A DNA stretch of 64,000 bases from Escherichia coli (GCF_003334335.1 NZ_QOWQ01000021.1); one strand, 5' to 3'; shown: positions 14,227 through 63,170, numbered from the stretch's first letter. Program-made: numbers and translations. The notes: generated by a model from the letters alone, not told the origin.

Positions 14227-14792
14227 TCATCCAGTCAAAACTTATTCGCGCCGCTCTGGTGTGCGCTGCTAAAAACGACGTTCGTTATTACCTGAACGGT
14301 CTTCACATCACGCCAAAACATATTGAGGCAACCAATGGTTCCGTGGCACTGCGCATGACTCACGGCATCCGGACGAAGAAAAACATCATTGTCCAGTTCG
14401 AAGGTGGCGTCCCGGCCAAAGCCGAAACGACAGAGCTGATTTTTAGTAAAGAGCCGATCGCTGTTCATCGCGACCAGTTTCAGCGCCGACTGTCCATTAC
14501 CGGCATTAAATTGGTGGACGGTTGTTTTCCGGATTTGGAACGCATCATTCCGAAAAAATTTGACCTCTGTACACACCCGGTGATCCAGGCGGGTTACCTG
14601 AGTTATCCAGAGAAGATGTTTGGTCGTGAGCGTAAATTTATTCCCGTCCAGTTACGTCCCTCCGGTGACGGGCAAGCGGTCAGAATTCAGTTTGATTCCA
14701 TCATCAACTCAATGTATGGCAATCCTGAATTTGTTGTGATGCCTTGTCGTGATCATGGCGATTTCAATGTGGCTCAGGAGCATCCGGAATGA
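14223..14792 (+). CDS. Hypothetical phage protein (189 aa)
   Basis: ORF with start overlapping the upstream stop. Confidence 0.5.
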   Translation: MIIQSKLIRAALVCAAKNDVRYYLNGLHITPKHIEATNGSVALRMTHGIRTKKNIIVQFEGGVPAKAETTELIFSKEPIAVHRDQFQRRLSITGIKLVDGCFPDLERIIPKKFDLCTHPVIQAGYLSYPEKMFGRERKFIPVQLRPSGDGQAVRIQFDSIINSMYGNPEFVVMPCRDHGDFNVAQEHPE

Positions 14793-14824
14793 AAATCGAA
14801 TACCAGGACGCCGCAGGAGGTGAA

Positions 14825-14911
14825 TCAATGAGCTGGCCTGATGCAATCGTAACTCTGGGGATGGTATTCGCAGTAGCGTTTGTTGTGTACTCGATTTGTC
14901 GATGGGGATAA
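14825..14911 (+). CDS. Candidate small single-TM peptide (27 aa, MSWPDAIVTLGMVFAVAFVVYSICRWG)
   Basis: AGGAGG 7 nt upstream of the ATG; hydrophobic core; below the ORF-track size cut-off. Confidence 0.35.
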   Translation, partial: SMSWPDAIVTLGMVFAVAFVVYSICRWG

Positions 14912-58153: not shown

Positions 58154-58798
58154 TCAGAAAAGAACACTGCCTAATAAAACACCAACAACGAAACACATTC
58201 CTGTTTCTTTCGGGTATTTTCTAATTATTTGCTGAAAATTCATCTGTAATTGACTACCGGCAGAATTGTTGGCAGTTAATTTCTTTTCTCCTTCCACTGA
58301 TTGTTGGTCTAACCAGGAAAGAGCCATCTGAAGCTGAGAACGAGTAAGATCGTTTAAGCGACCCGTTCCGAAATTGATATGGCAATAGCGGATAAGTTTT
58401 TGACGAAGCACTCCATCTTCACTATTACGAAGTAAAATACTTACAAGCGCCTTACGCGCATCATGATCTTTACATCGTTCAAGCATCGCACACAGAAAGC
58501 TCTCTGCGGTCTTATATTGATTCATTGTTATATCATCAATACTGTCTACACCAATCTCTGCATGCAATTTTTGCCAAATAATAAACGCCTCGGTATTGCT
58601 GGCATCTACAATAGCAGCAACTAATCTATTTAATGCCTTCCGTTGCCCCTTAAGTAAGGGGCGTGGATCACTGTTATTGCTCGAAGGAATTGCGATATTG
58701 ACGGTATGAGAGCCATCATATCGCCCTATCTGAATATTCTTTTCTTGGTAATCTCGCCCAGCAATACGATTATCTGAACCGTTTGAGTTGACCGTCAT
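58154..58798 (-). CDS. Hypothetical protein with C-terminal TM anchor (214 aa); N-terminal NRIAGRDY motif shared with the upstream repressor
   Basis: Strong RBS AAGGAGGTG; C-terminal hydrophobic segment GMCFVVGVLLGSVLF; motif NGSDNRIAGRDYQE. Confidence 0.6.
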   Translation of the reverse strand: MTVNSNGSDNRIAGRDYQEKNIQIGRYDGSHTVNIAIPSSNNSDPRPLLKGQRKALNRLVAAIVDASNTEAFIIWQKLHAEIGVDSIDDITMNQYKTAESFLCAMLERCKDHDARKALVSILLRNSEDGVLRQKLIRYCHINFGTGRLNDLTRSQLQMALSWLDQQSVEGEKKLTANNSAGSQLQMNFQQIIRKYPKETGMCFVVGVLLGSVLF

Positions 58799-58813: not shown

Positions 58814-59218
58814 TCACTTACCCTTTGTTTCGTTATAGTCACGGCCTGCGATGCGGTTATTCCCGCCAGAGATATTTAACCCTCCCCCTGATGACTGACT
58901 CTCCTTTTCAGTGACTGCACCTTTCAAAGCACCAATCACCGCGTTTTTCACATCTAGTGAGGCACTCCGAAAACGTGTGATCAACTCCTGCTCATCATCG
59001 TTATAAGTTTCAGGTGAATGAATTCCCAACACGACATACTGAACATCAAGGCCAAAACGCGACAACGCTGATAAGTACGCCGCATCAGGAAAGCTATCCC
59101 CTTTCTCATATCTAAGTTGGGTTAACTTTTTAACCCCACCAATATCACTCATAGCGACTTGGCTAAGACCCAGCCGTTCCCTTTCCTCACGCAACCGTTG
59201 GCCAATATCATTTTTCAT
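58814..59218 (-). CDS. XRE-family HTH repressor (immunity repressor candidate) with Gly-rich C-terminal tail
   Basis: HTH LGLSQVAMSDIGGVKKLTQLRYEKG; divergent from the RHH gene; C-terminus ...GGNNRIAGRDYNETKGK. Confidence 0.7.
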   Translation of the reverse strand: MKNDIGQRLREERERLGLSQVAMSDIGGVKKLTQLRYEKGDSFPDAAYLSALSRFGLDVQYVVLGIHSPETYNDDEQELITRFRSASLDVKNAVIGALKGAVTEKESQSSGGGLNISGGNNRIAGRDYNETKGK

Positions 59219-59293
59219 ACAAAAACCTTGACAGGTATCTTTTTTGATACCAAAATACTTTCATGAGCCATTAGATGAACACAATATACCACT

Positions 59294-60007: not shown

Positions 60008-60331
60008 ATGAAGCAACAACGAAATGCACGCATCAATAACAACACCGAACGCCACGTTGCACGCCAGCACTTCCGTAAAAATAGTGCGACCGCAACCACT
60101 GAAATCCATACCACACCAGACGGTCATCAGATAAAACAAACCGGAAAGCACACCTGGGCGATTGGCGACACTGGCATCGTTATTCACAAAAGTTTTCGTA
60201 GCCCTGTTACTGGCAGAATTAATTTTACCCTGACTCGCGGAGATGATTACTTCGGACAGGACTTCACATTTTTTGAAGCCTTAAGAACGGTCGATCGGTT
60301 AATGACTGGTCGTAATTTTCACGCTAAATGA
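60008..60331 (+). CDS. Hypothetical protein (107 aa)
   Basis: ORF. Confidence 0.45.
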   Translation: MKQQRNARINNNTERHVARQHFRKNSATATTEIHTTPDGHQIKQTGKHTWAIGDTGIVIHKSFRSPVTGRINFTLTRGDDYFGQDFTFFEALRTVDRLMTGRNFHAK

Positions 60332-60344
60332 TACAGATGAAAAC

Positions 60345-60560
60345 ATGGAAACATACAAAATTAAAGATATTGAACACCATGACGGTTTTTTCAGCGCTGA
60401 ACATGTTGCTTGTGTTGTCAGGATTTTCAATGAAGTAGATGTGATTTTGAAGCAAAACATAAAGCTTGAAATCATCGCAAAAAGCGAAGCAGACGCCATT
60501 GAAATAAAAAAAGCTATTGAACGTCAGATAATACAGTTGACAAGTACCATTGTATTTTAA
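60345..60560 (+). CDS. Hypothetical protein (71 aa)
   Basis: ORF. Confidence 0.4.
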   Translation: METYKIKDIEHHDGFFSAEHVACVVRIFNEVDVILKQNIKLEIIAKSEADAIEIKKAIERQIIQLTSTIVF

Positions 60561-60578
60561 GCAACAGGAAAAATAACC

Positions 60579-60818
60579 ATGACCAGAAATTACAAAGAAA
60601 TCGTCAATCAGATCATTAAGGCTTACAGCCACCGCATTGCAAAATTACCCGAGTTCATACGCATAATGGAGACGCATTCATTAATGCAAGGACTGAACGG
60701 GTTGGCACTGGCCGCATTGGCAGCTAACGATATTGATGCCACCATCGAAATAAACAACCTGTTATTAGACATTGAAAAAGGCGGAAACATAGAACCCTAC
60801 AATCTGGAGGCCGCATGA
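60579..60818 (+). CDS. Hypothetical protein (79 aa)
   Basis: ORF. Confidence 0.4.
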   Translation: MTRNYKEIVNQIIKAYSHRIAKLPEFIRIMETHSLMQGLNGLALAALAANDIDATIEINNLLLDIEKGGNIEPYNLEAA

Positions 60819-60940
60819 GCGTATTTCTTTCATGGCTAATTCTGATTATCTCCGTACTTATGGCAATCGGCATTATGCGAATTATCCACACACTGAAGGA
60901 TATCGAATTATTCTTTACCGGCGATAAACGCCGTAAATAA
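60815..60940 (+). CDS. Small single-TM peptide (41 aa, MSVFLSWLILIISVLMAIGIMRIIH...)
   Basis: Start overlaps the upstream stop; hydrophobic helix followed by a basic tail. Confidence 0.45.
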   Translation: MSVFLSWLILIISVLMAIGIMRIIHTLKDIELFFTGDKRRK

Positions 60941-60952
60941 AGCGAAAACGTT

Positions 60953-61048
60953 ATGAAGAATGTAAAAGCAATACTCACCATTGCCAGTGTGTGGCTGATA
61001 TTTCAGGTGTGTGCGCTTATCTGGTTAGCCCTGAAGATCTGGGAATAA
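60953..61048 (+). CDS. Small single-TM peptide (31 aa, MKNVKAILTIASVWLIFQVCALIWLALKIWE)
   Basis: Tandem to the previous small membrane peptide. Confidence 0.4.
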   Translation: MKNVKAILTIASVWLIFQVCALIWLALKIWE

Positions 61049-61153
61049 CCTTAAGCTTCAAATAAGAACGCAATAACACCAGAAAACATACGAACAATTA
61101 ATTAAGGCATTCATGCCATCGGGTTCCCTTTGTCTTTTTTCAGGAGTCAACAA

Positions 61154-61378
61154 ATGAGAACAGTCGAATCACCCGCAACCGCCAGACCAGTTAACCATCA
61201 TGCACATATCAGCATGGCCGCGAGAAAAGCCGAGCGTGCGCATATCTGCGAATTGCTCCGAGACCTGGTTAACACGGCGAAAGAGAAGCACTCCTCCCCG
61301 CTGGAAACCTGTTCAGCCATTGAACGACTGATTGCAACGCTCACGAACAACACCGAACTGAAGGGGTCAGCGCAATGA
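61154..61378 (+). CDS. Hypothetical protein (74 aa)
   Basis: AGGAG before the ATG; start overlaps the exonuclease gene. Confidence 0.45.
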   Translation: MRTVESPATARPVNHHAHISMAARKAERAHICELLRDLVNTAKEKHSSPLETCSAIERLIATLTNNTELKGSAQ

Positions 61379-61956
61379 ACCATCTCATGATTGACACCGA
61401 AACACTGGGTAACGGACCGGACGCAGCCATATTCGCGATCGGGGCGGTGTTTTTCGACCCGTTCACCGGAAAGCTGGGCAAGCAGTTTGAGAAATTCATC
61501 GACCCGGTAGATTCAGAACGCAACGGCGGAACCGTCAATGCAGCCACCGCTGTATGGTGGGCCGGACAATCCGTGGAGGCCAGATCCTGCCTGCGCAACG
61601 CAGAGGGAACAGAGCTTGCGGCAGTAACCGAATTTCTGGCGTTCATTTCACGCAATATGCATGACGAAAGCACGGGCAATTCACTGACCATATGGTGTAA
61701 GGGCGCATCCTTCGATTTCCCGATCCTGAAATCCGCCATAACACGCACAGCCGGAGAAAAAAGCATCCCCTGGTGCTACTGGAACGAGCGCTGTATGCGC
61801 CCGCTTATCGCCATGGCTGAATCAACTGGATGGAAAATGCCAGGCAGATCAGGAAAAGAGGCCATTGCTCACACCGCGCTGGGCGACGCCATTTACCAGG
61901 CAAAGGTCGTGTCAGAAATCTGGCAGCGCTTCACAACACCATTCCTGAACATATGA
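61375..61956 (+). CDS. DnaQ-like (DEDDh) 3'-5' exonuclease
   Basis: Exo I motif IDTETLG and C-terminal HTALGDA motif. Confidence 0.7.
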   Translation: MNHLMIDTETLGNGPDAAIFAIGAVFFDPFTGKLGKQFEKFIDPVDSERNGGTVNAATAVWWAGQSVEARSCLRNAEGTELAAVTEFLAFISRNMHDESTGNSLTIWCKGASFDFPILKSAITRTAGEKSIPWCYWNERCMRPLIAMAESTGWKMPGRSGKEAIAHTALGDAIYQAKVVSEIWQRFTTPFLNI

Positions 61957-61965
61957 GGTGAAGCC

Positions 61966-62193
61966 ATGGTCGCCATCCTGAATGTGTGTTGCTGCCCCCC
62001 CCTGAACGTGGAAAGAAAAGCCCGCGCATCGCTGCGTTTATTCCGCGACGGCGTGCGGAATTTTTCACGCATAAAACCCCACGACTACCTGGTAATAAGA
62101 ATCGGTTTCCGCTGGCGATTACTGAGCAAAAACAACGGGGCGTCATGGGATTTATTAACGCACGAAACCTATAACAAAGAGGCCGCGTTATGA
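61966..62193 (+). CDS. DUF4222-like small phage protein
   Basis: FRWRLLSKNNGASWDLLTHETYNKEA, paralogous to the 11747-11965 product. Confidence 0.55.
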   Translation: MVAILNVCCCPPLNVERKARASLRLFRDGVRNFSRIKPHDYLVIRIGFRWRLLSKNNGASWDLLTHETYNKEAAL

Positions 62194-63170
62194 GCAAAGA
62201 ACTGTTATCCGGTACGCCACTGAAATGGGTGGGCGGAAAAAGCCGCATCATGAACACACTGAAGGCGCACCTGCCAGAAGCCGACTGTCTGGTTGAGCCG
62301 TTCGTGGGCGGCGCATCGGTATTCATGAACACCAGTTACAAGCGTTACATCCTGGGTGATTCCAATGGTGCGCTGATTAATTTCTACCGGCAAGCTAGGG
62401 ACAACACCGACAGCCTGATCGACGAGGCGAAAACCCTGTTCCTGAACCACAACAACAGGGGTGACTATCTCATCATTCGCGAAACCTTTAACGCAGAGAA
62501 TCATGCCTTCCTGAACAGCAGAACGGGAATAAGCGACCGCCGTGAACTGCGACTGGCCGCCATGTTTTTGTACCTGAACCGACACAGCTTTAACGGTTTG
62601 TTCCGCGTGAACGGAAAAGGCGATTTTAACGTGCCTTTCGGCTGCTACCGCAAGCCCTACTTCCCTGAGCGTGAAATCCGCGCATTTGCAGACAAGGCAA
62701 ACAGCACCCGAACGCTGCTTATCCACGCAGATTTTAAGGATACGCTGAACTCTGCCAGTCACCTGTTCGGCATGGGCAACACGCTTTGCGTGTACTGCGA
62801 TCCCCCTTACCTGCAATTCAGTGGCCGGGACAATTTTACCGCCTACGGAAAACCATTCGATGAAGACGAGCACGTTCGTCTGAGGGCAGCGCTTGACCGC
62901 CTTTCACAGGAAACGGGCGGCATGACCAGCATCACCATCTCCAATTCCGACACACCGGAAACACGACGCATTTATCGGGGTTACCGGATGAACTGCATAC
63001 AGGCACCACGAAGCGTTGGCGCAAGAACCCGGGAATCAGCACCGGAGGTTATCGCCACCCTGAGACAGTGCGACGCCTGCGGTCACCATGGCGGTGGCTA
63101 CTGCCCGGACTGCGGACCTGTAACGGGAGATGCAACTTACAGCGTGATGTTTACCCCTGCCAGTACGTGA
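62190..63170 (+). CDS. Phage DNA adenine methyltransferase (Dam-like) with C-terminal Cys-rich zinc ribbon
   Basis: Motif I PFVGGASVF, motif IV DPPY; C-terminal CDACGHHGGGYCPDCG. Confidence 0.85.
   Translation: MSKELLSGTPLKWVGGKSRIMNTLKAHLPEADCLVEPFVGGASVFMNTSYKRYILGDSNGALINFYRQARDNTDSLIDEAKTLFLNHNNRGDYLIIRETFNAENHAFLNSRTGISDRRELRLAAMFLYLNRHSFNGLFRVNGKGDFNVPFGCYRKPYFPEREIRAFADKANSTRTLLIHADFKDTLNSASHLFGMGNTLCVYCDPPYLQFSGRDNFTAYGKPFDEDEHVRLRAALDRLSQETGGMTSITISNSDTPETRRIYRGYRMNCIQAPRSVGARTRESAPEVIATLRQCDACGHHGGGYCPDCGPVTGDATYSVMFTPAST

Follow-up and report, generated by a model that had tools for sequence, protein, structure and literature searches.

Two adjacent genes for predicted single-helix membrane peptides in the early region of a P88-like Escherichia coli prophage

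The locus

Two short open reading frames, pep1 and pep2, lie back to back on the + strand of the 64,000-nucleotide stretch of Escherichia coli DNA considered here (the window). The first, pep1 (60815-60940), encodes a predicted single-pass membrane protein of 41 residues, MSVFLSWLILIISVLMAIGIMRIIHTLKDIELFFTGDKRRK; the second, pep2 (60953-61048), is in the same reading frame and encodes another, of 31 residues, MKNVKAILTIASVWLIFQVCALIWLALKIWE. Both had been reported in an earlier reading made from the sequence alone, and their positions and translations are as given there. That reading also described one hydrophobic helix per peptide, and indeed each contains a single 19-residue segment of membrane-grade hydrophobicity. 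Kyte-Doolittle means for the best segment are 2.72 (pep1) and 2.30 (pep2), and summed Hessa-scale values are -3.5 and -1.1. AlphaFold2 models each peptide as a continuous helix. A charged tail, ascribed to both, is found in pep1, whose helix (approximately residues 3-21) is followed by a basic tail; in pep2 the charge lies instead at the amino terminus (K2 and K5). By the positive-inside rule the two predicted topologies are opposite: N-out/C-in for pep1, and N-in/C-out for pep2.

Across all six frames of the window, 299 ATG-initiated reading frames encode 25-60 residues, and six of these reach a Kyte-Doolittle mean of at least 2.2. Three are the candidates of the sequence-only reading; the remaining three are encoded on the opposite strand from the operon genes. 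Because only 6 of the 299 are this hydrophobic, the occurrence of two that are adjacent, non-overlapping, and on the same strand is not a pattern expected by chance.

The third candidate had been placed at 14825-14911. Its reading frame extends farther upstream, to 14789-14911 (+), and so encodes 40 residues, again with one hydrophobic helix. It overlaps the preceding 189-codon gene through an ATGA sequence, has no match in PHROGs, and is already annotated as a hypothetical protein (WP_255625547.1 in strain EC2).

The prophage and its early operon

Searches with tblastn assign the locus to Xuanwuvirus, the genus of P88-like phages within the P2 family, Peduoviridae. The proposed setting, the early operon of a second prophage, is borne out by the gene map. 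The prophage is inserted beside yecA; the integrase gene adjoins yecA and is followed by the repressor gene, a promoter-like site, and a series of tightly packed rightward genes. These encode, in order: an Arc-like protein; a Cox-like protein; DUF4761; a 71-residue protein; DUF4754; Pep1; Pep2; a 74-residue protein; a 3'-5' exonuclease; a ParE-like protein; and Dam methylase. PHROG assignments underlie the Arc-like and Cox-like calls, just 3' of the promoter-like site. Strain EC2 has the same two-prophage layout as the window.

The promoter-like site (TTGACA-17-CAAAAT, 59228-59256, +), identified by consensus scan only, faces the divergent repressor gene (58814-59218, -) and, by analogy with the C/Pe arrangement of the P2 family, is presumed to be the early promoter Pe. 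The scan found no further + strand promoter-like site between 59256 and 62200, and the closest predicted terminator is at 60292-60312. DUF4754 (79 residues) is encoded at 60579-60818 (+), and the 74-residue early protein (phrog_22206) at 61154-61378 (+). DUF4754 is confidently predicted to be a soluble three-helix bundle, for which structural neighbours are generic only.

Two other features of the region deserve mention. The 75-residue "ParE family toxin-like" gene (61966-62193, +) overlaps the start of the Dam methylase gene (62190-63170, +) in the ATGA manner, and this overlap is common to the window and all related prophages; the ParE-like gene has no obvious antitoxin partner and no match in PADLOC. 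On the other side of the promoter-like site, a 214-codon gene (58154-58798, -) is co-oriented with the repressor gene. Its product matches phrog_5825, contains no Pfam domain, and has a hydrophobic carboxyl-terminal segment; the motif NRIAGRDY is common to its amino terminus (GSDNRIAGRDYQEKN) and to the repressor carboxyl terminus (GGNNRIAGRDYNETKGK).

pep1, a catalogued family

The pep1 ATG overlaps the DUF4754 TGA stop codon (ATGA) in every lineage examined, and this arrangement is kept even where the DUF4754 proteins are only 25-37% identical (L002, L005, L037, and P88). The pep1 Shine-Dalgarno sequence, GGAGG (60806-60810, +), is situated within the DUF4754 coding sequence; its predicted duplex with the anti-Shine-Dalgarno sequence, -9.3 kcal/mol, is the second strongest among 14 operon starts tested. 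Diverged peptides of 34-48 residues encoded at the pep1 position align with Pep1 at z = 2.8-6.4 relative to shuffled sequences, and in all of them the helix begins with an invariant S-W motif.

Pep1 had been thought to fall below annotation cut-offs, but it is routinely annotated by the NCBI pipeline: RefSeq lists it as hypothetical in every inspected related record that carries the 41-residue form. Orthologues include WP_001537134.1, WP_000021704.1, and WP_062851068.1 (strains EC2, SCU-172, and LZSFT34, respectively). In strain SCU-106 the same pipeline leaves a diverged 34-residue peptide uncalled. The phage P88 homologue, AIZ95115.1 (37 residues), is labelled "membrane protein" and is 68% identical to Pep1 (tblastn, E = 8e-11). 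This protein and the RefSeq hypotheticals have the same position, early operon, single helix, and S-W motif as Pep1, from which they differ only by an allelic carboxyl-terminal tail (37-48 residues in total, sometimes frame-shifted). Pep1 is thus a member of an already catalogued hypothetical family.

The family is common in E. coli. At least 433 of 5,426 complete genomes (about 8%) carry the pep1 locus, and the exact window sequence has been deposited from 411 contigs. Homologues are 78-95% identical, and nearly all of the full-length ones have 41 residues. For all 30 matches sampled down the ranking, the annotation under the match comprises a hypothetical protein and DUF4754; members of the family lie after DUF4754, with the ATGA overlap, in a Cox-DUF4761-DUF4754 early operon. 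Only 18 clusters at 50% identity emerged when 1.84 billion representatives were searched with a profile, which marks the family as narrow.

Comparison with P88 provides the signal of selection. In the pep1 frame, the window and P88 are separated by 19 synonymous and 15 non-synonymous differences; the corresponding counts are 5/25 and 2/30 in the other two sense frames. (Among close pep1 alleles, pN/pS separates the frames poorly.) The sense reading frame is kept in all lineages, and the long antisense one is broken in P88 and L005. By these comparative measures pep1 is under purifying selection.

A frameshift in close homologues, which the sequence-only reading named as telling against the peptides, was in part found. 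A 1-nt deletion truncates pep1 to a 22-residue, helix-only peptide in three draft or metagenome contigs (L038, L039, and L040, positions 1437-1505); none of the 5,426 complete E. coli genomes carries this allele. The restriction of the truncation to these three contigs indicates that pep1 is dispensable rather than non-coding. DUF4754 is intact in all of them, and pep2 is also intact in L039 and L040; hence neither an obligate Pep1-DUF4754 partnership nor an obligate Pep1-Pep2 partnership is needed for the prophage to persist.

pep2, a later insertion

Sequence comparison with relatives places pep2 within an insertion cassette of about 132 nt (60941-61072, +). The cassette is missing from a range of related loci (L003, L004, L005, L009-L018, L020, L038, P88, and Shae_phiSM), in which the pep1 stop codon directly abuts the sequence ATAAC. 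This same junction is shared by pep2-less relatives with two types of downstream gene and by P88, which indicates that the state without pep2 is ancestral. Among 5,426 complete E. coli genomes, 21 carry the cassette. In every recovered pep2-bearing locus with readable upstream sequence (about 30), pep2 is directly 3' of pep1 and separated from it by a constant 12-nt in-frame spacer.

Here the expectation of a gene below annotation cut-offs was correct. None of the three RefSeq records with pep2 that were inspected annotates it, and only three GenBank records call it (KGM81220.1, DAU42316.1, and DAY48760.1). The window's own allele is absent from a collection of 15 billion proteins. Nevertheless, pep2 is a real, selected gene, as judged from sequence diversity that is small (eight protein alleles). 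Of the differences between the window and L008, 11 are synonymous and 6 non-synonymous (dN/dS 0.08; binomial p = 2e-4). With seven DNA alleles taken together, summed pN/pS is 0.25 in the coding frame and 0.59-10.3 in the other five; frame-wise pN/pS is the CodingDiv criterion for viral genes (PMC10356776). All eight protein alleles keep the reading frame open, with lengths of 31-34 residues: the L046 allele carries an in-frame 3-nt insertion, and a 1-nt indel near the carboxyl terminus swaps only the last residues (KIWE versus KNLGII). Further alleles differ by synonymous changes only. The non-coding spacer beyond the gene has diverged several times as fast as the coding sequence: the window and EC2 (L001) differ at about 10 of the 23 nt past the stop codon, and at 6 of the 96 coding positions. 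A glutamine in the middle of the predicted membrane segment, Q18, is invariant.

The pep2 start has no Shine-Dalgarno sequence (predicted anti-Shine-Dalgarno duplex, -1.8 kcal/mol) and lies in an A-rich, unstructured region. Two other genes in the operon have start regions of this type.

Taken together, pep1 and pep2 are genuine coding genes for predicted single-helix membrane peptides, as the sequence-only reading had proposed: conservation is specific to codon position, the reading frames are kept across alleles, and gene order is conserved. Pep2 in particular is a new and almost unannotated member of the class of predicted small phage membrane proteins.

Comparison of the window with EC2 (L001) over 60935-61160 gives 99-100% identity through DUF4754 and pep1 and only about 90% across the pep2 cassette. 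This drop points to a recombination breakpoint at the pep1/pep2 junction. The window allele of pep2 recurs in the metagenome contigs L023 and L031. Searches of 50,697 phage genomes, by megablast with 60300-61400, by blastn with the cassette, and by tblastn with Pep2, revealed no source for the cassette. Likewise, tblastn gave no match in plasmids, and a pattern scan gave none in 100,044 species-representative genomes; nor did a DUF4754 peptide pattern match any of the representative genomes. Scans of metagenomes and IMG/VR recovered the cassette in the same context only.

Pep2 was also considered as a member of the Pep1 family. Smith-Waterman alignments with Pep1 and with its P88, L005, and L037 counterparts score like shuffled sequences (z = -0.4 to 0.2). 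By sequence Pep2 lies outside the family, and paralogy with Pep1 is entertained only as a minority hypothesis.

A conserved non-coding element follows the cassette, at 61073-61153 (+), upstream of the 74-codon gene; it marks the 3' boundary of the pep2 insertion. Its sequence, ATAACACCAGAAAAC...AAGGCATTCATGCC...TTTGTCTTTTTT, includes a short hairpin (AAGGCATTCATGCC) and a T-run, and is 92-94% identical even where the flanking genes of relatives are far more diverged. P88-type relatives have AGAAAAC and another short hairpin (TCCGCATNNGCGGAGG) in its place. The element has no Rfam match, and its fold is not unusually stable. Possible roles are as a hairpin for processing or stability, as a weak terminator, or as a site for protein binding.

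Searches for families and RNA elements

Neither peptide matches PHROGs or PADLOC. Pep2 has no NCBIfam or Pfam match. Pep1 yields only sub-threshold, chance-level hits: the TatA model of NCBIfam (14.2 bits, where the cut-off is 104), and Fumarate_red_D and DUF6007 of Pfam (E = 0.06-0.07). The literature on DUF4754, Xuanwuvirus, P88, and small membrane proteins of P2-like phages yielded no study of these genes.

Rfam matches in the window are MicL, C0465, and other E. coli sRNAs, in keeping with E. coli chromosomal DNA; for the two genes, a search at E ≤ 10 returned only a spurious snoRNA match. RNA folding of both strands gave z values between 0 and -1.9 relative to shuffled background, and promoter and terminator scans gave site counts at or below the shuffled expectation. 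With these results unremarkable, the ideas of an RNA element and of an antitoxin were set aside. A holin, pinholin, or antiholin was likewise dismissed: the genes lie between DUF4754 and the exonuclease and Dam genes, 1.6 kb from the repressor gene, and not in a late lysis cassette beside an endolysin.

Proposed function and alternatives

The reading favoured here, at somewhat better than an even chance, is that Pep1 and Pep2 are bitopic inner-membrane microproteins that serve as accessory modulators of the host envelope during early lytic growth, and not as autonomous toxins of the toxin-antitoxin type. Their most likely role, as we infer it, would be that of membrane-embedded helpers of early lytic development. 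The genes probably belong to an early, repressor-controlled rightward operon of a P88-like prophage; phage P88 itself is inducible by mitomycin (PMC5285337). Since they lie about 1.6 kb 3' of the repressor-facing promoter with no internal promoter-like site, the regulation known for the P2 family makes their expression in the lysogen unlikely, and the peptides would appear only after infection or induction. Pep1 would be translated by coupling to DUF4754, via the ATGA overlap and the GGAGG sequence, and would insert with its amino terminus out and its carboxyl terminus in. It most likely acts with the soluble DUF4754 protein, or by helix-helix contacts with a host inner-membrane protein. Pep2, presumably a later, lineage-restricted addition of opposite predicted topology, most likely modifies or partners Pep1 in the membrane, or acts on the same target. 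Both peptides may work through transmembrane helix contacts, in the manner of the phage protein Gp11 discussed below. Residues S6-W7, S13, and G19 of Pep1 and the invariant Q18 of Pep2 provide indirect sequence hints of binding to a larger membrane protein. The sequence-only reading had listed depolarising toxins, division or host shut-off factors, and exclusion proteins as possible identities; no result here selects among these.

The least probable of the alternatives is a type I toxin-antitoxin system or autonomous depolarising toxin, in which one or two pore formers, checked by antisense RNA, would stabilize the prophage or bring about abortive infection. TisB, Hok, Ldr, and Zor-type toxins are small proteins with a single hydrophobic helix and charged ends, which Pep1 and Pep2 (31-41 residues) resemble. 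Moreover, prophage-borne type I systems are known (reviewed in PMC12648545). However, pep1 overlaps the DUF4754 stop codon and pep2 starts 12 nt past the pep1 stop codon, leaving no room for a separate promoter or structured leader. Consensus scanning, which cannot rule out a transcript, predicted no antisense promoter or terminator in 60940-61150; the sole minus-strand promoter-like site is inside pep1 (9/12), in a region whose site count is below the shuffle mean. The Rfam and folding results are also contrary, as are the family searches: Pep2 matches no toxin or other family in the libraries searched, and Pep1 approaches only non-toxin models, below threshold, with none in PADLOC. The toxin-like character first suggested for the peptides is thereby disfavoured.

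Exclusion or lysogenic conversion has somewhat more to recommend it, and is still judged unlikely. Small inner-membrane proteins of temperate phages often act in this way, being made in the lysogen and blocking DNA entry or a receptor or transporter used by competitors; HK97 gp15 and T4 Imm and Sp are exclusion examples among small phage inner-membrane proteins. The presence of pep2 in only some relatives is also reminiscent of a moron-type insertion. Against this, the distance from the early promoter and the want of an internal site imply that both genes should be silent in the lysogen, and no exclusion protein in PHROGs or PADLOC has a sequence relationship to either peptide. The repressor-linked 214-codon gene (58154-58798, -) is a better-placed candidate for a membrane or exclusion function expressed in the lysogen. 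Exclusion exerted early in lytic growth, in the style of T4 Imm, may overlap with the favoured reading.

Two further alternatives concern pep2. In one, only Pep1 has a function, that of anchoring DUF4754 to the membrane, and pep2 is a neutral passenger reading frame or owes its conservation to an RNA or DNA element. The missing Shine-Dalgarno sequence, the occurrence in only 21 of 5,426 genomes, the few alleles, the want of relatives elsewhere, and the failure of RefSeq gene callers to recognize it all fit such a passenger. The frame-specific codon pattern does not: 11 versus 6 differences at p = 2e-4, and pN/pS of 0.25 versus at least 0.59. Nor do the intact reading frame in every allele (including those with the 3-nt insertion and the terminal 1-nt indel), the purely synonymous extra alleles, or the much faster divergence of the adjacent non-coding spacer; and several other genes in the operon also are without a Shine-Dalgarno sequence. 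A passenger thus seems rather doubtful, slightly more so than exclusion.

In the other, Pep1 and Pep2 are halves of one two-helix protein, either a split hairpin or an obligate antiparallel heterodimer, with pep2 derived from a diverged allele of the family at the pep1 position and recombined into tandem. This has a low probability, similar to that of exclusion. The shared frame and the constant 12-nt spacer in every readable pep2 locus accord with it, as do the opposite predicted topologies, which would fit a hairpin with a basic cytoplasmic loop. Among readable loci pep2 never occurs without pep1; L005-type peptides and Pep2 share an in-frame TGGGTGATATT stretch at a similar distance from the ATAACACCAG element; and a natural 77-residue fusion occurs where TAA has become TAT. 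Yet most prophages carry pep1 without pep2, pep2 is intact where pep1 is truncated, and Pep2 shows no significant resemblance to the Pep1 family at the protein level (z about 0). The AlphaFold2 model of the fusion has two helices with a pTM of 0.39 and no confident packing, and the fusion itself comes from one short metagenome contig with other odd substitutions. The spacing, the topologies, the dependence on pep1, and the single fusion are compatible with a split hairpin. A related and comparably speculative idea is that pep2 is a micro-gene gained recently, either by birth in place or by insertion of a diverged allele from the same positional family, that makes with pep1 an antiparallel pair endowed with a new early-lytic activity, such as a small pore, an exclusion function, or a host-takeover switch.

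The fusion, P0078, reads pep1-Y-SENL-pep2 and lies at 780-1013 of L042 (ENA contig ERZ27295184 k141_48842). It may be a sequencing error.

Significance and comparison with known systems

The accessory-modulator reading overturns no current view of phage biology, and the finding is a modest and ordinary one; its main value is for annotation and for the choice of experiments. pep2, which RefSeq passes over in the E. coli records inspected, illustrates how small accessory genes slot into phage operons. The strict translational coupling of pep1, a widespread companion gene, to DUF4754 suggests the hypothesis that DUF4754 acts at the inner membrane. Should either peptide prove to have an essential envelope protein as its target, in the way that Gp11 does in Staphylococcus aureus, it would make a useful probe.

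Among known systems, the type I toxins of the Enterobacteria (TisB, Hok/Gef, Ldr, Ibs, ShoB, ZorO, and DinQ) are similar in form: approximately 20-50 residues, with one helix, in the inner membrane. Pep1 and Pep2 differ from them in having no separate promoter or leader, no detected antisense RNA, and no significant family match, and in being encoded inside a polycistronic phage operon. Other small early phage membrane proteins, including YdfD of the Qin prophage, T4 Imm and Sp, and phi29 p16.7, contact host membrane proteins or organize phage functions at the membrane.

Gp11 of the S. aureus phage PhiNM1, a small membrane protein encoded among the early genes, binds MurG and DivIC (PMC11237401). 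Pep1 and Pep2 are like it in kind only, with no sequence relationship. A further parallel is with MgtS, AcrZ, MgrB, PmrR, and KdpF, single-pass peptides of 29-49 residues that work by transmembrane helix contacts (reviewed in PMC12648545). Regulators of the MgtS/AcrZ type are chromosomal and stress-regulated and have known partners, whereas Pep1 and Pep2 are phage-borne and encoded in an operon. In such regulators polar residues in the middle of the helix are often important, and Pep2 has its invariant glutamine, Q18, in just such a position.
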